From an uncultured Planctomycetota bacterium (GTDB lineage Bacteria > Planctomycetota > Planctomycetia > Isosphaerales > Isosphaeraceae), in contig CAWJTV010000034.1 in NCBI GenBank assembly GCA_963845755.1, positions 480,001 through 544,000 of the forward strand: DNA of 64,000 nucleotides, written 5' to 3'. The notes beneath the pieces were generated by a model, which was given only the letters and a program-made list of their open reading frames with translations, was not told the origin of the DNA and ran no database searches. Position numbers and translations under genes: made by a program. Below are positions 40,328 through 60,975 of the stretch, piece by piece (position 1 is the stretch's first letter; the number at the start of each line of letters is the position of its first letter).

Positions 40328-40630
40328 GGCTGATCCTCCTTTCCTTCCCGACCGACCGGCTGCTCGATTTGCGATGTTAAACACTCGCTGGATAATCTAC
40401 CCCTCTCAACGCCAGATCGCCATGGTCGCGCGGGCTGTTCGAGCCGCGTTTACTGGAAGGCAATCCAATCAGAGAAATCGATTCAAGTACCCCAATCACT
40501 ACAAGCTTGATATACGGATTATTTTCTCCAGATTGCCGATGGGTTCGTTCGGTTCGTTTGCTGCATCTTGTCATTGAAGCGACCTCACACCGAACTCCAA
40601 TCGTTAAATTTTGCCGGATCGATACAATCG

Positions 40631-40782
40631 TGGCTTCGTTTGATCGATTTTCCGCGTCGGTTTCGTTCGCGGACCCTGTGGTTGACCGTGGTGTCTGGCT
40701 TCGTTTGATTGATTTCGGATGCGCGCGTCATCCTCTTGCATCAATCCATGCGATAGTCCCTGGCTTCGTTTTGATGATTTCG
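40631..40782. repeat. three degenerate ~22-bp direct repeats at exact 65-bp period
   Basis: TGGCTTCGTTT starts at 40631, 40696 and 40761, each followed by a GAT..GATTT(T)C-like tail. Confidence 0.65.
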
Positions 40783-41451
40783 CCATGCTGATCTCGCAGT
40801 CGTGATTTCCGGGTGTGGGCTGTCGATGAGGTGGGCGCGCACGATGACTTACAGATATTATGGGACACTTGAGCGTGCCTGGCCACGAATTCTGGAAGAA
40901 AAGTTGGCGGCGACCGGGTGTCGCCGAGGGCGAGTCGGGAAGATATACCTTTGAAGGTCAAGGGCCGCCGGCCGTGATGGCGGTATGGGAGGAGTTCCGC
41001 TCGAGGTGTGGGCTGGCCATCAGTGCAACGTCGAACCGGGCGGACAGCACGGCGAGCCGGTGGCCCAGGCATGGGCTCACGTCCTCGGCTCGCCATCTGA
41101 ACACCAGAGCAGGGGGAACGGCCGGCGGATCATGCCCTGCTGCGCCGATTATCACGCGGGTGATCTGCTCGCGGCCTTGGTCAGGTCCCGGGTGACCATC
41201 GGAAGCCGTAGAGAAGGCGCCCGCATCAGGGGTCTTCGTCCGCCGGAACAGGGAAGAGTGCAGAGGGGGTTCGGGGGAGAGGGGACGTGTCACGCGACAC
41301 CAAGTTGGATCGCGAAATCCCGACACCCGGTTTGATCGTACCTGCTCATCGGTGCGCGTTTATGGGTCGAAGGTGACAGTCGTTCAGGAGCGAAAAGGGC
41401 GGCAGCGTCAGAGCCGATCCAGCCCGCAGAGGGCCAGAGGCAACCCCTGTG

Positions 41452-41481
41452 GGTGCTTCGGTGTCGTCGGACGAATGGCAC
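41452..41481 (+). other. putative recombination core site S1
   Basis: GGTGCTTCGGT-GTCGTCGG-ACGAATGGCAC. Confidence 0.65.
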
Positions 41482-41695
41482 TAGCTTAAGCGTAACACTT
41501 TATGCCATTTGAGCTTAAGTGCGGATCTCCAGACATATTTTCAACGATTGTAGATATTCGCTTGTAATATTGATAGAGAGTTTAGCCTCAAATCAAGCCA
41601 CATGGACCCAACCTCATATCCTCCTGAATACTATTAATGGGCAAACCGTCGCGACACAACTCGTTTTCTGAAAACGAGTTACGCTTAAGCTAGTG
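41471..41695. repeat. non-coding linker L1 (233 bp including 44134-44141); right arm interrupted by intron copy 1
   Basis: terminal inverted repeat ACGAATGGCACTAGCTTAAGCGTAAC; AT-rich core homologous to L2. Confidence 0.8.
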
Positions 41696-44133
41696 ATGAG
41701 GTAGGCGGCCAGCCCCTTGATCTCAAGGGAATCCAACCGCCCCCTCCCGAACCGGACAGGCACGTTTTCGTGCATCCGGCTCTCCAGACACAGGATCTAC
41801 ATTTGTGTCACGGTCCAACCCGGTATGCCAGGTCCGCCAGTCGGAGGCCATCATATTCTCCTCGGTGGATCTTACGGTGGCACTCTCGGCAGACGGGCAC
41901 TTGCTTCCGGTTCTGGAGTCGCATCAGCCAGGCAAACCCACCGACAGGTTTGCCCTCCATCTTTCGGATGTGACGGACGTGGTGCATCTGCACCCCGACC
42001 GTTGTTTCGCAGATGATGCATGGGTGGTCCAGGCGGGACCTTGTCCGGAATCGGACGTGCATCTCCAGTGGGTCGGTTTGATCTCTTCCCGTTAGAAATG
42101 CCGTGGGGTTCCGGGTCCAGTCGGAGTTGGCTTTGAAGAAGGTGTTCCGTTCCTTCCCCTCGCCGTCTTTCCAGTTGAATTGCAGAGTGCGTCCGTGTTC
42201 GCAGAGGAGCTGCTTAACGGGCTTCTGCAACTTGTGGGCTAAGGTCTTCGCAAGTGACAAATGCAGGATGTACTGGATACGGCTCATGGAGGCGAAGTTG
42301 TCAGCAAACCTGTAGTAGTTCAACAGCCCCCAATTGGTGCTGTTGAACAGTTCGATGATGTGCTTCACCTCCAGGCAGACCCACGCTGTCTTGGATCGGG
42401 CGATGCCCTCACCGTCACAGAAGCCCTTCTGGTGAAGACGCTTGACCAGTTTCCTGATCGGCGCTCGCATCAGCGGGCTCCACCCCGTACACCGGCGCCG
42501 GTAGTGCCGCCGTTGGTTGTGGCAGTGGGTAACCTTGGGCTGTGGGTTGACGGCCCCCACCTGAAGCCGCGTCCCGAGAAAGAAGGCCTCCTCGGTCTTG
42601 GCGTGAGTGACGACCGTCTTTTCCTGGCTGAGTTGCAGTTTCAGCCTGTCCCATAGGAACGCCTGAATCTCGTCCTTGATCTGTTCGGCCAGGGACCTCG
42701 GCCCCGTGACGCCGACGATCCAATCGTCTGCATATCTGATGTATTTGACTCTGACGAAGCCAGGGTCAAACGTGTCCATCGACGGGAGAGATCGCATCTG
42801 TTTCGTCAAAGCGCGAATCTCCGGCGTCATGATCCCACCTGACCGTTTCAACGCTCGCTGCCTGCGATAGTTGATCCGGTGATACTCGGGGCTGTCCTTC
42901 CGCTTGCTGCCCTTCTCGTACTTCTGCTGTAGTCCCTCGACGAAGAGGTCGAGTTCGTGCAGGTAGATGTTGGCGAGGATAGGGCTGGCCACGCTCCCCT
43001 GCGGGGTCCCGATAAACGAGGCCCCCGGTTCCTTCCTCCATAGGTAGCCTGCCCGGAGTGCTTTCCAGATCAGGCCGATGAAGCGTTCGTCCGAGATCCT
43101 CTTCCGGATCAGGGAAACCAGGACGTGGTGATCGATCTCGTCGAAGCAGGATTTTATATCCCCTTCGATGATCCACGTCACACCAGACCACTTGGTCCTG
43201 AACTCATGCAGGGCCGTGTGAGTCCCTCGACCAGGCCGAAAACCATGGCTACAGTCGCTAAAGGTAGGCCCTTTCGGACTGTCGTAGATCGCTTCGAGGA
43301 TCACATGGATGACCTCTTGGACGATCTTGTCCCTTGGGGATGAGATGCCGAGAGGCCGCATCTTGCCATTTGCCTTGGGAATGTATTCCCGCCGCGAAGG
43401 CTTGAATTGGAAACCCTCGTCTCGCAGGGTCGCCACGATGTCGTCGATGGCATCCATGGAGAACCCATCGAGAGTCATCCCGTCGGTGCCAGGAGTCAAG
43501 TTCCCGGGAGCGGATTTGATTTTCTCATACGCGACGATGTAGAGATCCGTCTTGTAGAGGAGTCGATACAGATCCGCGTTGACCCAGTTGAGGTCCGTGT
43601 TGCACTTCCGCAGTGCTTCAAGCCTGAGTAGGGCTGAATGACTCATCCGAGTCACCCCGTTCTTGGTGAAGCCCTGTGTCCTGTCCCCCTTGGGCCGATG
43701 CCTACTACGGGGACTCTGTCGCCTTGGGCATTGCTGCCGTTAGGCGATCCCGTGGTTGTCGGTCAGGTCCGGTCCACGTTGAGGGCCTCCGTTCATCCCT
43801 TGCCCCTGCTCATTGCAGGGTGTGTCCTGCCGGAAGATCACGGAGGTGAATGGCATGCCCCCGTGAGACAGGAATCCGGGTTTCAGCGTCATTCCCGGCG
43901 GTGATCGAGCACACCCACTGGGACTGGAGTTCAAGCAATCCAGCCTTACCCATGCGTGGCCTAACTTGCGAACGTCTCTCGGCCCTTTGACGCTGGGCCT
44001 CACGTCGCTTCTTCCGCATGCTGTTGTCCCCTCGATCCTTTCGGTTGAAGGTCAGCGGAACGTTTGACCCGCCTTCTTCCAGCGGGGTCGGGGCACTCCC
44101 GACAAGACCAGACAAACCTTAGCCACGGCGCAC
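41696..44133 (-). mobile_element. group IIA (ML class, LtrB-like) intron, copy 1, 2,438 nt
   Basis: 5' GTGCG at 44133-44129; domain V/VI and terminal ...CCTACCTCAT at 41696; removal restores GAATGG|CACTAG. Confidence 0.93.
41808..43646 (-). CDS. ltrA: intron-encoded reverse transcriptase/maturase with HNH endonuclease (LtrA-like)
   Basis: RPLGI, GTPQGSVASPILANIYL, YIRYADD, C-terminal CIIC..HH..CRECH; ATG at 43646 (ORF track uses GTG 43655). Confidence 0.93.
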   Translation of the reverse strand: MSHSALLRLEALRKCNTDLNWVNADLYRLLYKTDLYIVAYEKIKSAPGNLTPGTDGMTLDGFSMDAIDDIVATLRDEGFQFKPSRREYIPKANGKMRPLGISSPRDKIVQEVIHVILEAIYDSPKGPTFSDCSHGFRPGRGTHTALHEFRTKWSGVTWIIEGDIKSCFDEIDHHVLVSLIRKRISDERFIGLIWKALRAGYLWRKEPGASFIGTPQGSVASPILANIYLHELDLFVEGLQQKYEKGSKRKDSPEYHRINYRRQRALKRSGGIMTPEIRALTKQMRSLPSMDTFDPGFVRVKYIRYADDWIVGVTGPRSLAEQIKDEIQAFLWDRLKLQLSQEKTVVTHAKTEEAFFLGTRLQVGAVNPQPKVTHCHNQRRHYRRRCTGWSPLMRAPIRKLVKRLHQKGFCDGEGIARSKTAWVCLEVKHIIELFNSTNWGLLNYYRFADNFASMSRIQYILHLSLAKTLAHKLQKPVKQLLCEHGRTLQFNWKDGEGKERNTFFKANSDWTRNPTAFLTGRDQTDPLEMHVRFRTRSRLDHPCIICETTVGVQMHHVRHIRKMEGKPVGGFAWLMRLQNRKQVPVCRECHRKIHRGEYDGLRLADLAYRVGP

Positions 44134-44159
44134 CCATTCGTCGATCACACCGAGGCAAG
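44134..44159 (-). other. putative recombination core site S2 (A-arm split by intron)
   Basis: (GTG|)CCATTCGT-CGATCAC-ACCGAGGCAAG. Confidence 0.6.
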
Positions 44160-44380
44160 CAAGCAGTAGAGGGATGACGATCTGCCTGGCTCCGCGCGGC
44201 GGTTGCGGCGCGGGGGCGTTCCGTTCACGATTGACCCGCCAGGTCTTCGGTCTCGCGTCCATCCTCGGATCCTCTCCTGTGGTAAGAAGAAGGATGACGA
44301 AGAGGCCGCCAGCCGGATACCCGGTCCTTCAATACCTGCAATTCGGTAGGATCAGGAGAATCGCAAGGGAGCCTCGCATC

Positions 44381-45163
44381 ATGAGCATCTTCGACCGATT
44401 CAAATTGACGGGAAAGCGTCTCTTCATCACGGGAGGTAGTCGCGGCTTGGGACGGGAGATGGCACTCGCGATCGCCGAGGCCGGCGCCGACGTGATCCTC
44501 GTTGGCCGCGACCCGGCAGGTTTGGAGAAGGCAGCCGGCGACATCCGCGCCCTGGGCCGCCAATGCTGGACCCTCGCGGCGGACGTCGGAAAGCCGGCCG
44601 AATGCGAAGAGGCGTGCCGGTTGGCTCTGGATCATCACGGCCCGATCGACATTCTGATCAACAACGTGGGCGGCCGGCACGAGAACATCCCCACGGAAGC
44701 GATGTCGCTCGACAAATGGCGCGAGCTGATCGACCTGAACCTCACCAGCTGCATGCAATGTACGAAATGGCTCGGCGCGGCGATGATCGAGCGCGGCGGG
44801 GGCGGGCGAATCATTAACATCGCTTCGATCAACGCGCTCGTGGCGGGGCGTGGCATCACGGGCCGGCACTACGAGACAGCGAAGGCGGCGATGCTTCAGT
44901 TCACCCGCGCGGTCGCGGCCGACTGGGCGGTGCACAAGATCACGGTAAACGCCATCCTGCCGGGCGGCTTCATGACAGAGGCGAACCAGCGCTGGTCCGA
45001 AATCCATCCGGAGGTGATCGAGCAGTTCCGCGCCAATATCCCGCTGGGCGATTTCGGCCAGCCGGAGGATCTTGGGCCGCTCGCGGTGTACCTGGCCAGC
45101 GACGCCTCGCGCTACATGACCGGGGCAGCCCTGGTGATCGACGGCGGGTACACGTTGTGGTAG
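44381..45163 (+). CDS. SDR family NAD(P)-dependent oxidoreductase (cargo 1)
   Basis: TGGSRGLG, DILINNVG, INIAS, YETAK (YxxxK), VIDGG. Confidence 0.92.
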   Translation: MSIFDRFKLTGKRLFITGGSRGLGREMALAIAEAGADVILVGRDPAGLEKAAGDIRALGRQCWTLAADVGKPAECEEACRLALDHHGPIDILINNVGGRHENIPTEAMSLDKWRELIDLNLTSCMQCTKWLGAAMIERGGGGRIINIASINALVAGRGITGRHYETAKAAMLQFTRAVAADWAVHKITVNAILPGGFMTEANQRWSEIHPEVIEQFRANIPLGDFGQPEDLGPLAVYLASDASRYMTGAALVIDGGYTLW

Positions 45164-45215
45164 GAAGACTGACGCGGGAATGTGATCACGCCAGTCTCCT
45201 TGTCGAGGACTTGAA

Positions 45216-46035
45216 ATGAACGGACCCAGAACGGTCAGATCGTTCGTGTCAAGTAGCCCGGAGTATCATCGGGCATTCCAAGCGTTCCTGGCCCACACTG
45301 ACCAGAAGGACAAGGCCAGGGAGTGGATAAGGCACGAGGTCGACGGGCTCGCGAATCGGTCGGTCATGATTGACGCGGGCGCCGGCAGCGGGCGGCTCAC
45401 TTCGTGGCTCACTCCGCTGTTCGGGACTGTGATCGCCATCGAACCGAACCCCTCCATGGAGTCGGAGCTTCGGATCGCTTGCCCAGACGCGGTGGTGATC
45501 GCCGCCACGATCGCCTCGGCCTCACCGCCGACGGCAGGGGACTTCGTGCTGTGCTCGCACGTGTTCTATCACATCCCCCGGTCGCAGTGGGAAGCGACCT
45601 TGCTGCACTTGATGGGCTGGCTAGCTCCCGGGGGCGTTCTCGCCGTCGCGTTGCAGAACCCCCGTGCTGACTGCATGCGCATGGTCAACCATTTCCTCGG
45701 GGGCCGCCTCGATCTGAGCGAGCTTTGCCCGATGGCGAACGCAGAGGATGGTGAGTATGAGGCACGGCTGGAGACCGTTCCTGCTCACATTCGCGCGCCC
45801 GACCTCGGGACAGCCTGCGAGATCGCCGAATTCTTCCTGAATGACCTGCCCATGCCCGCGCCACCGAGGTGGGAGGACCTGGAGCATTACGTTGAACGAG
45901 CATTTCAAGCAGGCCGAAGGTGGTTACCAGCTCTCGTGTCATCAAGACTTCTTACGAGTCTCCAGATCGATTGGATCGCCTCTATCGGCGATAAGAGCGG
46001 ACCGTCCGCACGGGGCGCGGCGGTCGTCCCCTTGA
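45216..46035 (+). CDS. class I SAM-dependent methyltransferase (cargo 1), frameshift near 45900
   Basis: MIDAGAGSG, IAIEPN, DFVLCSHVFYHI, LAPGG. Confidence 0.82.
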
Positions 46036-46199
46036 TCTGGGGGCGAGAGCTTCTGCGCCAAACGGTGCAGGGACTGGACCACCGTTCGGCTCGTCTCGGG
46101 AGGCCGACGGTTGATTGGCGGCTGGATGGACCGGACTATCTGGGTCTGGGACGCGACGCCGCTGCCGGAATAGCAGCGAGGGTGGGGACACTGTTCGCA

Positions 46200-46400
46200 G
46201 TCGTCCTCAATCGGCCGGCTCCGCCCGTGCAGACCTCACCTTCCTCGCGATGACGCGGCAGCGGTTCGGTCGGCCGCAAGAGGCCCGAGAGGGCCTCGAC
46301 CGCCTCCGGGAGAACCTGGAGGACCCAGCCCGCGCTAGATGGCGAGGCCCCGGGCTTCTTGCGCGAGGCCCGAGCGGTCTTTGCCGCTTCACGCCGTTGG
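46200..46400 (+). pseudogene. remnant resembling the TPR-like C-terminus of planctomycete Ser/Thr kinases
   Basis: DLTFLAMTRQRFGRPQEAREGLDRLRE; no intact start. Confidence 0.4.
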
Positions 46401-46481
46401 CCTGCGAGCCACGCTGCTGAACGATCAGCCCGGCGTGCCGCGTCGCCGTGATCTCGCCGCCGTGGAGCGCCTTCCTTTTGC

Positions 46482-46746
46482 GCGCGTCGGTCCGACGACA
46501 CGAATGGCACTAGCCTAAGCGTAAGTCGCTGATACTAAGTGACTTGTGTCTGTGACGGTCGGGGTTCTTGCAGAGAATACCCGACTATGATCATGATTTG
46601 ACGATGGGCTAGCCGGGAAACCAAGGCCTCAGATGGAGCCCCTAGGAATCCGGTCCATGGATCAAGGAAGTCCATTGTTTGCAAGTTCAATTTCTGCCAG
46701 AGGTTGCGCTTATGCTAGTGCCATTCGTGTCGTCGGACCGACGCGC
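46482..46746. repeat. linker L3 (46500-46728) with core sites S3 and S4 forming a 33-bp perfect inverted repeat
   Basis: GCGCGTCGGT-CCGACGAC-ACGAATGGCACTAGC at 46482-46514 and its exact reverse complement at 46714-46746. Confidence 0.85.
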
Positions 46747-46841
46747 AGAGAGCCGTTCCACAAGACGCCGGTGAATCCAGAACTAACCGCGTCCCTGTTC
46801 CCCTCCCTTGGATACAAATTCAAGAGGACTCGGTTTCACGC

Positions 46842-47389
46842 TCAAGCGAATCCCTTGTCTTTGAGCCACTTCTCAATCACAGATGGAAGGGTGGTGCCCG
46901 GGTTTCTCGTGTCGAAGGGCTTGTAGAGTTTGCCGTTCAGATCGGCTTGAAGGGTCTTGAGAGTCTTGTCCTTCAGCAGTAAGACCGGCTTGTTGAGGGC
47001 CATCATGTAGCCGACCTCTAGGCCGACATTGGGATTGAACTCCTCTTGCTCGATCCGATCGAAGATGGCGATGCCGAAGCCGCAGCCGTGCATGTAGGTC
47101 TTGATATTGGAGAAGGTGTCGTCGTCGTATTCCTTGTGATCGGCCCGCATGGCGGCAATTCCATGCTTTGCGGTCGTCTCCTGGATCACACGGACGATGT
47201 CACTGTGAGCGTCGGTCTCGGTGAACCGCATCATATGAAGGCGGCCTTGCGTGGGTCGGGATGCTCAGCCTGGAACGCCTGGAGGCTTTCTTGGATATCG
47301 GGCGGCAAAGATGGAAGGCTTGGCTTCGGCGGTAATGCTTTGCTTCTTCGTCCAGATGGGCGAGTCGAGACTGAACCTGGATCAGGCAT
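46842..47389 (-). CDS. nucleoside-deoxyribosyltransferase/TIR-like domain protein (cargo 2), frameshift near 47234; start uncertain
   Basis: AFI|MMRF, RAD, GIAIFD, NPNVGLEVGYMMALNKPVLLL, LQADL. Confidence 0.7.
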
Positions 47390-47565
47390 CTCAACGAGCG
47401 CAGCACTCGAATAGTTCGCCAGGCGCCGCCCCTTTCCTTCGTCCCACACGCATTCAAGATTGCTAAACATTGAGTCTACTTGCGCAGTATGGGTAAGCTG
47501 GCCCCCCCCTCAGACTACGCAGTCCGCTTGGAATATTAGCAATATCCCTCGGCAAAGACGAGGAA

Positions 47566-48660
47566 TCAGCTCGAGCCGAGTCCCTCATACTCGGGGGATA
47601 GCCGGTAACTCCGCGACTTCCTGGCCGGGTCAACCACGAGCACGAACCCGCCGCTCACCCATGAAGAGAGGATGTTCCGGGCCGTCCTCTGGGAGACGCC
47701 GAAGAGGCCCTCGACGTCGCGGCTGGTGATGACGACCGAGCGGCGGAAGAGCTCCAGGGCCCGGCGCCGGCGGGGGTCGAGGCGACGCAGCGCGGCCGAG
47801 TCATCCCTCATGCCCCGGTCGGCGGCCTCCCGGGCGCGGCGGCGGACGCTCTCGAAGCTGTCGGCCATGCCCGCGCAGAAGTATTCGACCCACGCCGTGA
47901 TGTCCGCCTCGGCACGGCCCTGATAGTAATTGTGCGACGGCCCGACCGCCAATGCCCGGTAGTAGGCCGACAGGTCTCTGGCGTAGTATTCTTCCAGCGA
48001 ATAGAGCCCCTTCAGGTCGTACCCGCCCCGGTGGAGGATCAGGGTCGTCAGGAGCCTCGCCGTGCGGCCGTTGCCGTCGTAGTAGGGGTGGATCGTGGCG
48101 AACTGGTAGTGGGCGATCCCGGCGCGGATCGGGCACGGGACGCCCTCGTGCTCGCTGCGCCGGAGCCAGTCGACGAGCTCCTCCATGAGCCGGGGGACAT
48201 CCGATGCCTCCGGGGGCATGTAGACGATCCGACGGCTGCCGGCGTCGCGGATCACGTTCTGCCCGCCCCGGTATGGGGTGGGCTTCTTCACCGCCTTGCC
48301 GCTGGCCATCACGAGGGCGTGAAGGGTTCGGACCTGGAGGTCCGTCACGTCCCCTCCCTGGGCCGCGAATCGTTCGAGCCGCTCGATCGCCGCGTAGTAG
48401 CCGAGGACCTCGGCCTCGTCTCGCTCCCGGCCCGGGAAATGCCTCCCCTGCTCGATCAACGAGGAGACCTCCTCCCGAGCGAGGCGGTTGCCCTCGATCA
48501 TCGTGGAGTAGTGGGTGGAGAAGAGCCGCGCGGTCTCGCGGAGGCCGGCGAGCACGGAGGACGTGATCGGCAGGTCCTCCACGGCCTGCCGGGCCGCCTC
48601 GATCCTCATGAGGTGGGTCGCGGTGCGGGGCGTGATCCGGTAGTTGGGCTCGAACGGCAT
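47566..48660 (-). CDS. Fic family protein with C-terminal HTH (cargo 2)
   Basis: STMIEGN; HPYYDGNGRTAR Fic motif. Confidence 0.92.
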   Translation of the reverse strand: MPFEPNYRITPRTATHLMRIEAARQAVEDLPITSSVLAGLRETARLFSTHYSTMIEGNRLAREEVSSLIEQGRHFPGRERDEAEVLGYYAAIERLERFAAQGGDVTDLQVRTLHALVMASGKAVKKPTPYRGGQNVIRDAGSRRIVYMPPEASDVPRLMEELVDWLRRSEHEGVPCPIRAGIAHYQFATIHPYYDGNGRTARLLTTLILHRGGYDLKGLYSLEEYYARDLSAYYRALAVGPSHNYYQGRAEADITAWVEYFCAGMADSFESVRRRAREAADRGMRDDSAALRRLDPRRRRALELFRRSVVITSRDVEGLFGVSQRTARNILSSWVSGGFVLVVDPARKSRSYRLSPEYEGLGSS

Positions 48661-48979
48661 TCGGCGGCACTTTCTCGGTCGGTTTCCTTGCCGTTATTGT
48701 GCCGTTAAAGTGCCGATAAATCAAGCGATCGGTGTGGGTCGAGGTAGGCACTCTGCTCACAACCTGGGACGCGTATCTGGATTGCGGCGTCGCCGGCGAG
48801 GCGGCGGGGGGTGAACGCCGACATTGCGATTAGTCCGACGCTTGGGCGGTCTAGACAAGCGCATGTCCCGCCGGGCCGGCTCGATGGCCGCCCCGCCCCG
48901 GGCCCGGCCCGGCCGATCGCCGGACGGAGCCGGTTCGTCCAACAGACGGGGCGGAGTCGGGCCGGAGCCGGCGACGTTG

Positions 48980-49005
48980 CTTGCTTCGGTGGGATCGACG
49001 AATGG
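48980..49005 (+). other. putative recombination core site S5 (A-arm split by intron)
   Basis: CTTGCTTCGGT-GGGATCG-ACGAATGG(|CAC). Confidence 0.65.
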
Positions 49006-51443
49006 GTGCGCCGTGGCTAAGGTTTGTCTGGTCTTGTCGGGAGTGCCCCGACCCCGCTGGAAGAAGGCGGGTCAAACGTTCCGCTGACCTTCAACCGAAA
49101 GGATCGAGGGGACAACAGCATGCGGAAGAAGCGACGTGAGGCCCAGCGTCAAAGGGCCGAGAGACGTTCGCAAGTTAGGCCACGCATGGGTAAGGCTGGA
49201 TTGCTTGAACTCCAGTCCCAGTGGGTGTGCCCGATCACCGCCGGGAATGACGCTGAAACCCGGATTCCTGTCTCACGGGGGCATGCCATTCACCTCCGTG
49301 ATCTTCCGGCAGGACACACCCTGCAATGAGCAGGGGCAAGGGATGAACGGAGGCCCTCAACGTGGACCGGACCTGACCGACAACCACGGGATCGCCTAAC
49401 GGCAGCAATGCCCAAGGCGACAGAGTCCCCGTAGTAGGCATCGGCCCAAGGGGGACAGGACACAGGGCTTCACCAAGAAAGGGGTGACTCGGATGAGTCA
49501 TTCAGCCCTACTCAGGCTTGAAGCACTGCGGAAGTGCAACACGGACCTCAACTGGGTCAACGCGGATCTGTATCGACTCCTCTACAAGACGGATCTCTAC
49601 ATCGTCGCGTATGAGAAAATCAAATCCGCTCCCGGGAACTTGACTCCTGGCACCGACGGGATGACTCTCGATGGGTTCTCCATGGATGCCATCGACGACA
49701 TCGTGGCGACCCTGCGAGACGAGGGTTTCCAATTCAAGCCTTCGCGGCGGGAATACATTCCCAAGGCAAATGGCAAGATGCGGCCTCTCGGCATCTCATC
49801 CCCAAGGGACAAGATCGTCCAAGAGGTCATCCATGTGATCCTCGAAGCGATCTACGACAGTCCGAAAGGGCCTACCTTTAGCGACTGTAGCCATGGTTTT
49901 CGGCCTGGTCGAGGGACTCACACGGCCCTGCATGAGTTCAGGACCAAGTGGTCTGGTGTGACGTGGATCATCGAAGGGGATATAAAATCCTGCTTCGACG
50001 AGATCGATCACCACGTCCTGGTTTCCCTGATCCGGAAGAGGATCTCGGACGAACGCTTCATCGGCCTGATCTGGAAAGCACTCCGGGCAGGCTACCTATG
50101 GAGGAAGGAACCGGGGGCCTCGTTTATCGGGACCCCGCAGGGGAGCGTGGCCAGCCCTATCCTCGCCAACATCTACCTGCACGAACTCGACCTCTTCGTC
50201 GAGGGACTACAGCAGAAGTACGAGAAGGGCAGCAAGCGGAAGGACAGCCCCGAGTATCACCGGATCAACTATCGCAGGCAGCGAGCGTTGAAACGGTCAG
50301 GTGGGATCATGACGCCGGAGATTCGCGCTTTGACGAAACAGATGCGATCTCTCCCGTCGATGGACACGTTTGACCCTGGCTTCGTCAGAGTCAAATACAT
50401 CAGATATGCAGACGATTGGATCGTCGGCGTCACGGGGCCGAGGTCCCTGGCCGAACAGATCAAGGACGAGATTCAGGCGTTCCTATGGGACAGGCTGAAA
50501 CTGCAACTCAGCCAGGAAAAGACGGTCGTCACTCACGCCAAGACCGAGGAGGCCTTCTTTCTCGGGACGCGGCTTCAGGTGGGGGCCGTCAACCCACAGC
50601 CCAAGGTTACCCACTGCCACAACCAACGGCGGCACTACCGGCGCCGGTGTACGGGGTGGAGCCCGCTGATGCGAGCGCCGATCAGGAAACTGGTCAAGCG
50701 TCTTCACCAGAAGGGCTTCTGTGACGGTGAGGGCATCGCCCGATCCAAGACAGCGTGGGTCTGCCTGGAGGTGAAGCACATCATCGAACTGTTCAACAGC
50801 ACCAATTGGGGGCTGTTGAACTACTACAGGTTTGCTGACAACTTCGCCTCCATGAGCCGTATCCAGTACATCCTGCATTTGTCACTTGCGAAGACCTTAG
50901 CCCACAAGTTGCAGAAGCCCGTTAAGCAGCTCCTCTGCGAACACGGACGCACTCTGCAATTCAACTGGAAAGACGGCGAGGGGAAGGAACGGAACACCTT
51001 CTTCAAAGCCAACTCCGACTGGACCCGGAACCCCACGGCATTTCTAACGGGAAGAGATCAAACCGACCCACTGGAGATGCACGTCCGATTCCGGACAAGG
51101 TCCCGCCTGGACCACCCATGCATCATCTGCGAAACAACGGTCGGGGTGCAGATGCACCACGTCCGTCACATCCGAAAGATGGAGGGCAAACCTGTCGGTG
51201 GGTTTGCCTGGCTGATGCGACTCCAGAACCGGAAGCAAGTGCCCGTCTGCCGAGAGTGCCACCGTAAGATCCACCGAGGAGAATATGATGGCCTCCGACT
51301 GGCGGACCTGGCATACCGGGTTGGACCGTGACACAAATGTAGATCCTGTGTCTGGAGAGCCGGATGCACGAAAACGTGCCTGTCCGGTTCGGGAGGGGGC
51401 GGTTGGATTCCCTTGAGATCAAGGGGCTGGCCGCCTACCTCAT
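49006..51443 (+). mobile_element. group IIA (ML class, LtrB-like) intron, copy 2, 2,438 nt
   Basis: GTGCG at 49006; EBS2 near 49231-49238; delta/EBS1 TGCCATTC 49284-49291; domain V 51357-51390 (GAGCCGGATGCACGAAAACGTGCCTGTCCGGTTC); ends CCTACCTCAT at 51443. Confidence 0.93.
49493..51331 (+). CDS. ltrA: intron-encoded reverse transcriptase/maturase with HNH endonuclease (LtrA-like); translation identical to copy 1
   Basis: same motifs as copy 1; AAGGGGTG ribosome-binding site before ATG 49493. Confidence 0.93.
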   Translation: MSHSALLRLEALRKCNTDLNWVNADLYRLLYKTDLYIVAYEKIKSAPGNLTPGTDGMTLDGFSMDAIDDIVATLRDEGFQFKPSRREYIPKANGKMRPLGISSPRDKIVQEVIHVILEAIYDSPKGPTFSDCSHGFRPGRGTHTALHEFRTKWSGVTWIIEGDIKSCFDEIDHHVLVSLIRKRISDERFIGLIWKALRAGYLWRKEPGASFIGTPQGSVASPILANIYLHELDLFVEGLQQKYEKGSKRKDSPEYHRINYRRQRALKRSGGIMTPEIRALTKQMRSLPSMDTFDPGFVRVKYIRYADDWIVGVTGPRSLAEQIKDEIQAFLWDRLKLQLSQEKTVVTHAKTEEAFFLGTRLQVGAVNPQPKVTHCHNQRRHYRRRCTGWSPLMRAPIRKLVKRLHQKGFCDGEGIARSKTAWVCLEVKHIIELFNSTNWGLLNYYRFADNFASMSRIQYILHLSLAKTLAHKLQKPVKQLLCEHGRTLQFNWKDGEGKERNTFFKANSDWTRNPTAFLTGRDQTDPLEMHVRFRTRSRLDHPCIICETTVGVQMHHVRHIRKMEGKPVGGFAWLMRLQNRKQVPVCRECHRKIHRGEYDGLRLADLAYRVGP

Positions 51444-51668
51444 CACTAGCTTAAGCGTAACAGCTTATGCCATTGGAGTTTAGGCACGGGTCGTCAGGCA
51501 TATTTTCAGCGATTGCAAATATTCGCTTGTAATATTGATAGAGGATTTGGCCTCAATTCAAGCCACATGGACCCAGCCTTATATCCTCCTGAGTACTACT
51601 GATGGGATAAACATTGCGACGCAACTCATTTTCTAAAAAAGAGTTACGCTTAAGCTAGTGCCATTCGT
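51444..51668. repeat. non-coding linker L2 (233 bp including 48998-49005); left arm interrupted by intron copy 2
   Basis: same terminal inverted repeat and length as L1, with a diverged but alignable core. Confidence 0.8.
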
Positions 51669-51686
51669 GGGATCGACCGAAGCACC
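51658..51686 (-). other. putative recombination core site S6
   Basis: GTGCCATTCGT-GGGATCG-ACCGAAGCACC. Confidence 0.65.
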
Positions 51687-51928
51687 TTCGAAACATGCCT
51701 TGTGGCTGGACGCCACTCTGTGCGTCTGTCACCTTCGACTCGTGAACGGGCACCGATGAAGAGGTTCGATCAAACCGGGTGTCGGGATTTCGCGATCCAA
51801 CTTGGTGTCGCGTGACAGGACGCGTCTCCTCCGAAACTCATCACGAGCGCGGGCGAAGCCCGCCACCGCTGGCGTTGGCGCCTAGAGCGATTCACGCTTG
51901 GGTGGCTGACGGTCGGGGGACAGAGCCC

Positions 51929-53325
51929 CATACGAAACTGGTTAAGCCGCAATCCTTGGTGCGAACAGCAGTTGTCGCGTACTGGGGCGTTTCTTCCGTC
52001 GGCCACGCCGGGGCAAACGACTCAAGCGGACTCGCAGTTTCTCCAACACCCGCCGCAACCGCGCTGGGTCGCTCAGCGCCGCGGCGATTTGCAATGCCAG
52101 CCGCTTCACCCGCCGAGCCGCCCGGACCAGGCTGATCCCACACAGGGGCCCTCCGCGCAGCAGCGTCCCCCAGTGCTGCACCAGCATCCCCAACAGCTTG
52201 GCATACCTCTCGCACAACACCCGCTGGCCCCGCCGACCCCGCGTCCGGTCCACACCCCCTCCCGATTTCCACGCCTTATACAACAACTCCACCTGCCAGC
52301 GGACACGATAAAGCACGCAGATTTCTTCAATTGTCAACGTGCCCGCCGGCAAATCGGTGATCAGCACCGTCCCCTGGCACATCACGCGCTGGCGATCACT
52401 CAGCGTCTTCCCCTTCTTCCGCAGCTCCTTTCGCAGCCGACGCAATCGGATCTCGGCCACCTCCCGGGGCACCCGCAGGGCCACCAACCGACAGCCCAAG
52501 GTCGCCTTGGTCCCCAGGACGACCGTAGTGTCGATCCGACCCTCCGTTTGCCGATCCAACCACGCGCTGATATTGACCCCACCCGGCTCACCGGCTCGCA
52601 CTTTCAACTGCGCCGGGACGCGGCTGATAAAGTGAATCCCCTTCTGCTGATCGGCGGCCAGTCGTTCCAGGTCGAAAAAGCCCAGGTCGCACAACCGCAG
52701 GCTGTTGGCAGGTAAGGGCGCCAGCTCCTCGGCCAGGGTTCGCTCAGAATCGCGCGCCGGTGCCGGTGGCTGAATCTCCAAGCGGCCGGTGGTCACATCC
52801 CACCGCGTCAAGAGCTTCCATCCCGCTTGACCGCCTTGGGGATCAGAGCCACCACAGCCGGGGAAGGATCCGGCCAATTCGGCCGGCAACCCGACGATGG
52901 TGACGTCCTCGACGGAAACGGTCGCGAAGCGGCGCAACAGCGGAATCATCTCGGGCCGGGCCGCGAACAGCAGGTTCAACGCCTTCTCGAGCACCCGACG
53001 CAAACAGTCCGCGGCGCGGGCGTTGAAGCGTTCGTTGAAAGCCGCCTCGCTGATGTCGAGGTCTTCAATGATCTCCTCAATGGTGGCGTCGGGATTCTCC
53101 AGCCAATGAAAGACCAGGGCCTGGACGAATCGGGACCCGGTGAGCTTGCGCTGGCGCCGAATCATGCCGGAATCCTTGGCAGCCTCATCGGCGTCGGTGG
53201 TGAAGAGGGCTTGCAAGGCATCAGCCAGTTGATCGATCGTGATGGTCATCCGGTACTCCTCCGGTGCGGAAATACTGATCAAATGTATTGTACCAGAGGA
53301 GTTACTTCTTAACCAGTTTCTCATG
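51929..53325 (-). mobile_element. IS4-family insertion sequence (~1.4 kb)
   Basis: terminal inverted repeats CATACGAAACTGGTTAAG / CATGAGAAACTGGTTAAG (16 of 18 match). Confidence 0.85.
51942..53249 (-). CDS. IS4 family transposase
   Basis: RRQRKL, DLGFFD, YRVRWQVELLYKAWKS (YREK motif). Confidence 0.9.
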   Translation of the reverse strand: MTITIDQLADALQALFTTDADEAAKDSGMIRRQRKLTGSRFVQALVFHWLENPDATIEEIIEDLDISEAAFNERFNARAADCLRRVLEKALNLLFAARPEMIPLLRRFATVSVEDVTIVGLPAELAGSFPGCGGSDPQGGQAGWKLLTRWDVTTGRLEIQPPAPARDSERTLAEELAPLPANSLRLCDLGFFDLERLAADQQKGIHFISRVPAQLKVRAGEPGGVNISAWLDRQTEGRIDTTVVLGTKATLGCRLVALRVPREVAEIRLRRLRKELRKKGKTLSDRQRVMCQGTVLITDLPAGTLTIEEICVLYRVRWQVELLYKAWKSGGGVDRTRGRRGQRVLCERYAKLLGMLVQHWGTLLRGGPLCGISLVRAARRVKRLALQIAAALSDPARLRRVLEKLRVRLSRLPRRGRRKKRPSTRQLLFAPRIAA

Positions 53326-53383: not shown

Positions 53384-54765
53384 TGTCACCCGACAGTAGG
53401 TTTTGCCGCGAATCCCGACAAAAAGGTTTTGCCGCCTCGTGGCGGGGGGTAGTCTGTGATGGTCCGATCCTGCCAACTCCTGCGAGGGTCACTATGCCCG
53501 CTCCACTCCCGCCGACAACCCGGCGCCTCATCTTGCTACGATCCCGTCGCGGCCAGACCGCGGCGGCCATCGCGGACGCCCTGCATCTCTGCCCCCGCAC
53601 GGTCCGGCACCTGCTCCAGCGGGCTCGCGACCCGGCGAGCCCTCAGGGGACCGCTTATCGGCCCGGTCCGGGGCGGCCCGCCGACGACCACCCGCTCCGA
53701 GCCCAGGCCCTGGCCCTGCGACAGCAGCATCCGACCTGGGGAGCGGGCTACATCCGCGTCCGCCTGGCCACCGAGGCCGACCCGGCGACGGTGCCTAGCG
53801 AGCGCGCACGTTGCGGCGCTGGTTCCGCCGCCAGCGGCACCCGCCTGCGGCGGGGGGACGGCGGTCGCCGTCGGCCGCCGACCGTGCCATCGCCCCGCAT
53901 GACATCTGGCAGAGGGACGCCGCGGAGCAACTCCGCACGGCCGACGGCCAGGGCGCTGCTGGCTGCGGCTGGTGGATGAATATACGGGGGCCTTCCTGGG
54001 CACCACGGTTTTCCCCCCACTACTACTGGGCCCACGTCCCCGAGGCCGAGGTGCAGCGGCACTTGCACCGCGCCTTCGAGCGGTGGGGGCTGCCGCGCCG
54101 CATGCGGGTCGATAACGGCAAGCCGTGGGGGTCCTGGAGCGACCTGCCCCCCGCGCTGGCGTTGTGGCTGATCGGCCTGGGGGTCGGCGTGATCTGGAAC
54201 GACCCGCGGCGGCCGCAACAGAACGGCGTGGTGGAGCGGTCGCAGGGGACGGCCAAGCGGTGGGCGGAGCCGCACGCCTGCGGCAACCCGGCGGAGCTGC
54301 AGGCCCGCCTGGACGCCGACGACCGGTTGCAGCGGGAGCGGTATCCCGTCGCCGGGGGACACAGCCGTTGGGAGCTGTTCCCGGGTCTGGCGCACAGCGG
54401 CCGCGCCTACCGCGAGGCGGACGAGGCCGGCGCGTGGTGCCGGGGGCGGGTGCGCGACCACCTAGCGGAGTGGGCCGTGCCGCGCCGGGTGGACAGCCAG
54501 GGAAAGGTGTCGATCTATAACAGGAATATCTATGTAGGAGTGTTATATGCGGGCCGGGACGTCTGGGTCCAGTTCGACCCGGGGCACGGCGAGTGGCTGA
54601 TCAACGACGGCGGGGGCCAGCAGCTGCGGGCCCGGCCGGCCCCCGAGATCGACGCGGAGTCGATCCGCGGGTTGCGATTGTCGGGACGGAAGTAGGGACC
54701 GCCGGGTGTCCATGCGGCAAAACCTTTATGTCGGGATTCGCGGCAAAACCTACTGTCGGGTGACA
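53384..54765 (+). mobile_element. IS481-like insertion sequence (1,382 bp)
   Basis: ~52-bp terminal inverted repeats TGTCACCCGACAGTAGGTTTTGCCGCGAATCCCGACA...; GCCCC duplication at 53379-53383 and 54766-54770. Confidence 0.88.
53494..54695 (+). CDS. HTH + integrase-core (DDE) transposase, frameshifted
   Basis: N-terminal HTH, HPTWGA, WQRD, RVDNGKPWG, PQQNGVVERS. Confidence 0.8.
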
Positions 54766-60799: not shown

Positions 60800-60975
60800 T
60801 TGCGCGCGTCAGTCGGATCGACGAATGACAGTAGACTAGGCGCAAGTGTTTTCTGATAAATGACTTGGACCTGTACAGGGCCGGTCGTTTAGGGGAAAAA
60901 TCTTAGTCTGTTCACATTATGATTAATTGGCTGGCCGGGAAACATAGGGCTCCAGATGGAGACCCCGAGAATCAA
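60800..60975 (+). repeat. degenerate core site S7 and partial L3-type linker
   Basis: TTGCGCGCGTCAGT-CGGATCG-ACGAATGACAGTAG; shares GACTTG, GCCGGGAAAC and CAGATGGAG with L3; no right arm found. Confidence 0.7.

Follow-up and report, generated by a model that had tools for sequence, protein, structure and literature searches.

Which parts of a layered mobile element recombine, and which have simply been inserted into it? This question is raised by a 10.5-kb element at positions 41288-51817 of a 64,000-nucleotide stretch of DNA (the window; positions 480,001 to 544,000 of contig CAWJTV010000034.1, assembly GCA_963845755.1) from an uncultured planctomycete of the Isosphaeraceae. The window's own genome (14.3 Mb, 88% complete; the window is on its contig C34) is called G000 here, other G-numbers denote genomes and three-digit L-numbers denote loci. 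A sequence-only reading had described the element as an array of six recombination-like sites (S1 to S6), of a build typical of tyrosine recombinases, each consisting of a B-arm, a spacer and an invariant A-arm, which bound non-coding linkers (L1 to L3) and cargo modules within transposon ends. In our best explanation of the whole, to which we give a probability of roughly 0.6, the element is nested: modules bordered by B sites and exchanged by a recombinase acting in trans would have been invaded by IS4 insertion sequences (ISs) and their miniature inverted-repeat transposable elements (MITEs), these by a group II intron, and the ladder would be carried between ends derived from other ISs.

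The inner layer is the most firmly placed. Inward-facing A-arms enclose either spacers of 58-260 bp or elements of about 1.85 kb. The full elements between A-arms measure 1.83-2.04 kb and encode an IS4 transposase (NF033592 scores of 213 and 202 bits in L001 and L046, where 115 is the cut-off; related open reading frames (ORFs) in L026, L036, L043 and L100). The YREK motif stands at residue 315 of the L046 transposase, with F in place of Y in the G000 copy. The terminal repeat starts with GAATGG and has TTA at positions 14-16, and a target duplication of 11-12 bp flanks five out of five full-size elements. Table 1 of PMC2266710 gives subgroup IS4 the ends '-AATR--------WTW', target duplications of 10-13 bp and a typical size of 1,400-1,650 bp. 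Our ends and duplication length fit this signature; the size of 1,830-2,040 bp exceeds the range, which is typical rather than strictly required. On these sequence signatures it is close to certain that the A-arm is the terminal inverted repeat of a subgroup IS4 element and that the linkers are its MITEs of ~230 bp, and the same signatures identify the motif GT-spacer-AC as the target duplication, 11-12 bp long, that these elements make.

Of the 41 IS4/MITE pairs in other genomes, 32 are flanked by direct copies of the spacer (one more has a single mismatch, eight are of other kinds), as are seven of the 13 pairs in G000 (two inverted, four other). The MITEs resemble the five full elements that were compared over the terminal 15-28 bp only. 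Autonomous elements with a transposase and target duplications rule out the A-arm as the arm of a recombinase site, and with it the arm-spacer-arm unit as first drawn. The alternation in which A-arms face linkers and B-arms face cargo is a trivial consequence of A-arms being IS4 or MITE ends. A MITE with a CTAG duplication was ruled out as well, the repeat beginning at GAATGG. The smallest form seen is one of 58 bp (L060:4967-5024), with two IS4 ends back to back between two B arms that have different spacers. The pattern of an IS4 end on a B arm is also found at L047:6001-6026 and in L038, L074 and L087, which are titled Pseudomonas kielensis, Burkholderiales, Solirubrobacteraceae and Acidobacteria, and some of which may be misbinned.

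If the A-arms are transposon ends, what are the B-arms? In G000, 24 of the 25 IS4 repeat copies sit on a B arm, and the target is a polar palindromic site, B1-spacer-B2'. Under a narrower rule G000 has 38 empty sites, compared with two and two in reversed/complemented controls. A wider rule finds 96, of which 54 are empty and 42 are IS4-occupied half-sites; the empty palindromic site predicted by the sequence-only reading exists in many copies. Strict sites occur in 54 of the 121 genomes of our family-level set (up to 84 per genome; several of the 67 genomes that have none are 99% complete) and in 10 of 201 genomes across the phylum, leaving 191 without. The site pattern was met in at least 107 genome-contig stretches, where 76 of 80 titles among the matches listed are Planctomycetota, and the empty-site pattern in 12 stretches of viral contigs. 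Two near-complete genomes have one and the same B-like 24-mer, in a single copy, on their second contigs (G031:C2:2706 and G102:C2:15538); it is possibly a plasmid resolution site.

The site is ordered in three respects. It is polar, with the B1 motif on one arm in 41 of 53 cases vs 2 of 53 on the other. Its spacer, 7-8 bp between arms as delimited here, falls into two classes (7-class and 8-class) among empty sites, and both arms hold one GC-rich core. The sequence-only reading had staked itself on alternation and on varied cargo, and both are seen: 13 of 19 neighbouring empty pairs alternate in orientation, and the cargo varies in relatives. Twelve of these 13 join different spacer classes, while the same-orientation pairs share a class in every case (6/6). 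The commonest cargo near sites (e.g. L245, L152 and L194), as named by eye from the sequence, is a Ser/Thr kinase with an extracytoplasmic-function-type sigma factor.

Evidence for exchange comes from the flanks of the empty sites. We compared 181 distinct sites from G000 and from loci fetched by searches with site and end sequences. One flank is common to 169 pairs and both flanks to eight, whereas none of the control anchors (three shifted sets of 110-129 anchors) gave a one-sided pair. Since so many pairs share a single flank and the controls none, DNA blocks are exchanged at the empty B site, as these comparisons of sequence show. The mode of sampling has led to over-representation of two IS66-like ends, named alpha and beta, which are described below. 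That said, 78 one-sided pairs on 59 sites persist when these ends are removed; polarity is crossed in three of the 78, B1-side flanks recur with new partners in 23, and at 11 sites each flank is reused separately. B1 stands on both sides in 21 of the 181 empty sites. Tiny modules of 17-97 bp are common (52 found, mostly of 32 or 36 bp), and fusion modules are also present.

With these results the window can be read again. As had been claimed, the six sites stand in the order given, their spacers have 7-8 bp, a perfect inverted repeat of 51 bp closes the element on both sides (41288-41338 and 51767-51817), the 11-bp outer arms at 41452 and 51676 are inverses of each other, and the limits of the cargo hold. 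Within the window a 14-mer of the A-arm has five matches at two or fewer mismatches, many more than chance would give (shuffled mean 0.20, maximum 2). Other points had to be revised. The A-arm, said to be invariant in all sites, is intact in four of six; in S2 and in S5 a group II intron of 2,438 bp interrupts it after ACGAATGG, and L1 and L2 measure ~230 bp solely after intron removal because their A-arms hold introns. The introns make up about half of the element. Nor is there one type of B-arm, as the outer arms (B2) are distinct from the cargo-facing ones (B1). The features are as follows.

41283-41287: 5-bp target duplication GGACG of the outer element, second copy at 51818-51822
41288-41351, + strand: IS481-like end, the 51-bp terminal repeat plus 13 bp matching the right end of the IS
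41352-41470, + strand: site S1; alpha block, an IS66-like end (~120 bp), then B2 arm 41452-41462 and 8-class spacer 41463-41470
41461-41472, + strand: left copy of the 12-bp IS4 target duplication, identical to 46727-46738
41473-44139: IS4 MITE L1, 229 bp without the intron, 24-bp terminal repeats, the right one split by intron copy 1
41696-44133, - strand: group II intron copy 1, which lies 6 bp into the IS4 terminal repeat; reverse transcriptase (RT)-maturase-HNH ORF 41808-43655 (RF00029 62 bits over 40; Pfam on an identical-protein copy)
44140-44162, + strand: site S2, 7-class spacer 44142-44148 and cargo-facing B arm
44149-46491, + strand: cargo 1, in the opposite orientation to cargo 2; genes for a short-chain dehydrogenase (ORF ends 45163) and an S-adenosylmethionine-dependent methyltransferase (45216-46253)
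46478-46501, + strand: site S3, B1 arm and 8-class spacer 46492-46499
46502-46726: IS4 MITE L3, 225 bp
46727-46750, + strand: site S4, which joins the right-hand 12-bp duplication copy to a B1 arm
46737-48990, - strand: cargo 2; nucleoside-deoxyribosyltransferase-like ORF 46842-47234 (below the Pfam cut-off) and Fic protein 47566-48660
48977-48999, + strand: site S5, B1-type arm and 7-class spacer 48991-48997; 11-bp duplication 48989-48999, again at 51667-51677
49000-51666: IS4 MITE L2, 229 bp once the intron is removed and 86% identical to L1; intron copy 2 interrupts its left repeat
49006-51443, + strand: group II intron copy 2, ORF 49484-51331 (RF00029 and Pfam matches)
51667-51753, - strand: site S6; beta block, 7-class spacer, B2 arm 51676-51686 and IS66-like end (~87 bp)
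51754-51817, - strand: the other IS481-like end, with the 51-bp repeat and 13 bp that resemble the same right end

Because S1 and S4 share the 12-bp duplication, L1, cargo 1 and L3 read as one composite insertion. Recombination between MITE copies could, by analogy, leave the same picture; it is described for ISRm22, an IS4-family element with hybrid repeats that targets repetitive extragenic palindromic (REP) sequences (PMC1525189). The 11-bp duplication of L2 is carried by S5 and S6. IS4-free alleles exist with other neighbours for S2 (L225), for S4 (G000 C6:57166, another left neighbour) and for S5, the right end of cargo 2 (L288). The first 1,025 bp of cargo 1 are 96% identical to the metagenome locus L225 from the site onward, and homology stops near the stop codon of the dehydrogenase gene.

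Elsewhere in the window, a decayed IS4 end lies on a B arm at 60809-60834 (+); its mate is 5 kb off and beyond the window, at G000 C34:545770, and the two show a direct 7-bp spacer repeat with cargo between. A second, unrelated IS4-family transposase adjoins the element (51942-53324, -; NF033592 168 bits). Upstream, at 40630-40782, are three 23-bp direct repeats at exactly 65-bp spacing.

The two introns differ from each other at two positions. They have Domain V/VI, a GUGCG start, an RT-maturase ORF (TIGR04416 at 252 bits, under the cut-off of 300) and exon-binding site 1 (EBS1) pairing: at intron base 281 a hairpin loop exposes an EBS1-like CCATTC that can pair with the tip of the IS4 repeat. 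In G000 all 12 full intron 5' ends lie within this tip, one partial match having been set aside. EBS2 co-variation between the two introns and their spacers was looked for and not seen. Soil metagenome contigs (run X10) match most of the intron (window 41694-44065) without any difference, which suggests that it has spread recently. Two further G000 copies are themselves interrupted, one (L011:9037-13951, contig C11) by a ~2.4-kb insert with a 681-aa ORF and the other (L013:7174-11642, contig C36) by an element with IS21-like ORFs.

The outermost layers appear to come from further ISs. In G121, G034 and G053 the 51-bp end flanks IS481-like elements of ~1.39 kb that encode an rve/HTH transposase. 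Elements of the IS481 family have a transposase between TGT..ACA ends; the best NCBIfam match of that transposase is IS481, at 40 bits vs a cut-off of 224 on a 201-aa piece. Both termini of the window element resemble the right end of this IS. Ends of Tn402 or Tn7 type are ruled out, since the cognate element is a 1.39-kb IS rather than a tni module with a res site. As DNA, 41288-41470 matches 37 of the 121 family genomes. The expectation of other cargo between the same ends was borne out in G001, G087 and G064, two of which keep most or all of the IS481-like transposase. In G000, the 5-bp flanks of the ends at contigs C10 and C45 are complementary, and the assembly may have cut a single element in two there. 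A frameshifted IS481-like transposase of the same general kind as the owner of the 51-bp ends lies at 53494-54695 (+) of the window.

Inside these ends, the alpha (120 bp) and beta (87 bp) blocks are conserved through the spacer and often occur without the 51-bp end. They start like an autonomous IS66 element in G059; only the first 19 bp are shared, as with L197 and L198, which encode an IS66 transposase (288 bits over 180). Members of the IS66 family have GTA-type ends and make 8-bp duplications. Around ten inward-facing alpha/beta pairs, such a duplication is perfect once and matches at 7/8 positions twice; there is none in the window. An IS66 origin of both blocks is therefore likely. Modules of 96-97 bp in which a beta-like IS66 end lies between two B2 arms are seen at L221:4250, L238:868 and L288:314.

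An exchange system needs an enzyme, and a candidate was reached from an integrase fragment that lies next to a site in G000 and belongs to a conserved family of 348 aa. This family has 933 clusters in one search and 1,141 representatives in another, and the sources name its members only as integrase or hypothetical. A phylum-wide protein search found it in 2 of 301 genomes and a class-wide profile search in 30 of 301. The fold is the CB+CAT one of tyrosine recombinases: PF02899 is over its cut-off, and the top Foldseek matches of a predicted model (mean predicted local distance difference test score 67) are lambda Int, XerA and Tn1549 Int, with E about 1e-5 and a template-modelling score of about 0.3. 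Among the positions compared with the RKHRH pentad and Tyr of tyrosine recombinases, K203, K272, R275 and H296 are invariant and Y306 nearly so, these positions being assigned by motif rather than structure. An R-x-K motif is invariant (R201), and the close clade has a C-terminal CxCC motif. A search of the PDB by sequence gave chance lipase matches only, no relative was found in viral contigs, and a plasmid collection held one distant match at 26%.

The position of the gene points to the B site. In loci of the same family a site overlaps the stop codon at a fixed offset, the best site lying 9 bases past the last codon in 16 of 17, and many loci have a second site about 180-215 bp upstream of the gene. 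Over 15 loci identity is 1.0 for spacer bases 1-3, 0.71 for the outer arm and 0.27 beyond it, with 0.63 conserved at spacer bases 4-7; homology stops at the outer arm. The bounding sites are also struck by IS4 (L324, L340 and L327). The two spacers of one recombinase module differ, and three copies in G103 have different outer flanks, an identical upstream spacer and a downstream spacer that varies in its outer bases. Even the recombinase fragments of G066 and G087 end in a site, whose 7-class spacer is that of the G000 ladders. The C40 integrase family (L005) was tried as the enzyme and rejected, with a site in one of 30 loci, its own; it served as a control. A tyrosine-recombinase profile run over 281 foreign loci gave nine matches and no recurrent family, and this profile missed the divergent 348-aa candidate. 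From these associations in sequence, the 348-aa recombinase is rather more probably than otherwise the enzyme behind B-site exchange, acting in trans. A candidate for the tyrosine recombinase that the sequence-only reading called for is at hand in this family, bounded by sites in relatives, with a broken gene in G000 itself.

The mechanism that we propose begins with B sites as the borders of exchangeable modules. Modules bearing genes have B1 arms inside; tiny modules of 26-36 bp, the IS66-like ends and the recombinase gene have B2 arms inside, and sites of the two spacer classes alternate, like the C and D modules of plasmid-borne dif (pdif) ladders. The recombinase, itself a B2-type module, would recombine sites in trans, probably needing identity at only the three conserved spacer bases beside one arm, and modules would be swapped, added in pairs or deleted. 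The IS66-like and IS481-like ends may move whole ladders with transposases supplied in trans. The IS4 elements and MITEs, as their sequences show, insert into B1-spacer-B2', duplicating GT-spacer-AC, and the intron homes into their terminal repeat. The ground plan of the element in the window would then be alpha end, site, cargo 2, site and beta end, with a MITE-cargo 1-MITE composite landing in the 8-class site and a third MITE in the 7-class site. As the recombinase is a pseudogene in G000, recent change there was probably driven by IS4 and the intron. Of the gene-shuffling platform with a recombinase in trans that had been suggested, we therefore keep the exchange of blocks at sites, the analogy to pdif and a candidate enzyme, and drop the site family as drawn.

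Several results weigh against this explanation. The candidate derives from one adjacent pseudogene and is truncated in G000; the position of its first catalytic Arg is an invariant Asp (D158), and the C-terminal 70 residues of its model are unreliable. The preset two-arm site score of 11 is reached in eight of the 38 windows upstream of the gene and in one of the 32 downstream of it (controls 0/67, maximum 0.9), so few because inner arms are degenerate, and in loci of other families the control maximum is beaten downstream in 3 of 15 only. A profile search of ten further site-bearing genomes (completeness 54-93% where given), among them genomes with 84, 42 and 30 strict sites, found fragments only in five and nothing in five, while G103, G123 and G094, with an intact gene, are site-poor (0 strict sites). 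Co-occurrence of gene and sites is modest (14/18 vs 40/103), in a sample whose related members do not count as independent. When 802 proteins encoded near sites were clustered, the groups were kinases, IS4 transposase and sigma factors, with no recurrent recombinase. Six of the 13 IS4/MITE pairs in G000 lack a direct repeat, and the sequencing-run contigs, none of which spans half of the stretch or has an informative joint, gave no excised circle or inversion. Integron arrays are known to persist without their integrase, and loss of the recombinase from site-rich genomes either resembles these or points to another enzyme.

The rival that survives best, although we consider it rather unlikely, does without a recombinase. 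Here the B sites would be REP-like, arrays would be reshuffled by targeted IS4 insertion, composites, MITE recombination and precise excision, and the recombinase would be a passenger. The composite in the window has just such a perfect 12-bp duplication, hybrid MITE flanks do occur, ISRm22 provides a precedent for the targeting, and the site-rich genomes tested have no intact recombinase. Polarity, the two classes and alternation nevertheless all hold among IS4-free sites; each of the 169 one-sided pairs would need an insertion, a rearrangement and a clean excision, and the clustering of tiny modules at 32 and 36 bp and the fixed places of sites around the recombinase gene are further difficulties.

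Unlikely too is a small tyrosine-recombinase transposon of the Tn554 or Tn916 kind, in which targets of B1 type would receive the recombinase module, or a tiny derivative of it, by way of overlaps that do not match, and cargo would be just the intervals between, moved secondarily. The differing spacers of one recombinase module, the pattern in the G103 copies and the 21 of 181 empty sites with B1 on both sides are as this would predict, and an invariant R-x-K without the first Arg parallels IntCTnDOT (PMC8138268). It fits poorly with regular class alternation and with B1-side flanks that recur with new partners (23/78 pairs).

We judge it very unlikely that B sites are planctomycete dif-like sites of the host XerC and XerD, i.e. 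a true dif-module system in another phylum. The architecture fits C and D modules (PMC13141974), dif prediction failed for the one planctomycete genome tried (PMC3025954), and a host enzyme would account for site-rich genomes without the candidate gene; yet the spacer has 7-8 bp instead of 6, both arms hold one GC-rich core, and most family and phylum genomes (67/121 and 191/201) are without a strict site, unlike an essential chromosomal dif. Finally, the original site, with B-arm and A-arm as one recombination site and linkers as functional platform parts, suits the geometry seen in the window and is almost certainly wrong, as the A-arm ends IS4 elements with transposase and target duplications, and L151, L183 and L185 have the same outer ends with empty sites and no linker.

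Returning to module exchange by a dedicated recombinase, we suggest tentatively, and at somewhat less than even odds, that this is a third natural kind of gene-module shuffling beside integrons and Xer/dif, with its own recombinase family with a rearranged active site, two non-interacting spacer classes, swaps like recombinase-mediated cassette exchange, a wide distribution among the planctomycetes of soils (with as many as 84 strict sites in one genome), and an IS4 parasite and an intron hyperparasite of its own. No description of such a system was found in the literature searched, which does not extend to most subscription journals or ISfinder. If true, dif-like shuffling, with another site and a self-mobile recombinase, arose more than once. 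It would also go some way to explain why the accessory DNA of very large planctomycete genomes is a mosaic, and the compact recombinase-site pair and site-specific IS4 would be candidate tools.

How does this compare with known systems? The parasites are familiar. Subgroup IS4 elements, their MITEs and cassettes of the IS231-MIC231 type are alike in terminal signature, YREK motif, 11-12-bp duplication, strong specificity for a target arm and gene-carrying composites. Ours are larger (1.83-2.04 kb vs 1.40-1.65 kb), their target is a putative recombination site, and their terminal repeat is in turn targeted by an intron. Homing to a repeated part of another mobile element is also known from group II introns with special targets (IIC-attC, IIB at integrons); here that part is the IS4 terminal repeat instead. 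Introns in the inverted repeats of transposons have been reported, and none of these reports was located in the literature searched. Each of the four layers (IS4, IS66-like, IS481-like and intron) adds a new member to a known family.

For the candidate enzyme the nearest parallels are IntCTnDOT and recombinases of the Tn916 and Tn554 type. They likewise miss the first catalytic Arg and have an invariant Arg further on (an R-x-K in IntCTnDOT; PMC8138268), and have different overlaps at their two ends. The candidate differs in that no arm-binding domain was seen, in its single-gene 1.25-kb module and in the CxCC of its close clade. IntCTnDOT tolerates mismatched overlaps. Integrons and clusters of attC sites lacking integron-integrases (CALINs) also combine a tyrosine recombinase with gene-bearing units, leave arrays that outlive the enzyme and are carried by transposon ends; their cassettes have one site each, whereas modules here have two inverted ones. 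Judged by eye against the attC consensus, no attC-type core was seen; the candidate has no match to the IntI family beyond a far sub-threshold NCBIfam one, and there is no integrase within the window element.

The closest likeness is to dif modules, which are called unique to Acinetobacter and have polar sites, C and D modules and a 6-bp spacer between XerC and XerD sites (PMC13141974). Dif modules are described as dependent on the Xer enzymes of the host. Shared with them are polar arm-spacer-arm sites, two alternating module types, fusion modules, spacer classes and a dedicated IS that targets the site (the IS1202 family there). The site sequence, the 7-8-bp spacer and the core shared by both arms are different, the ladders here are chromosomal and lie inside IS-derived ends rather than on Rep_3/OrfX plasmids, and exchange is probably the work of a dedicated recombinase whose own gene forms a module. 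In summary, the system works like a ladder of dif modules yet falls outside them on spacer length, and it is not an integron. It is a real module-exchange system, probably one not described before, that is seen here through its parasites.

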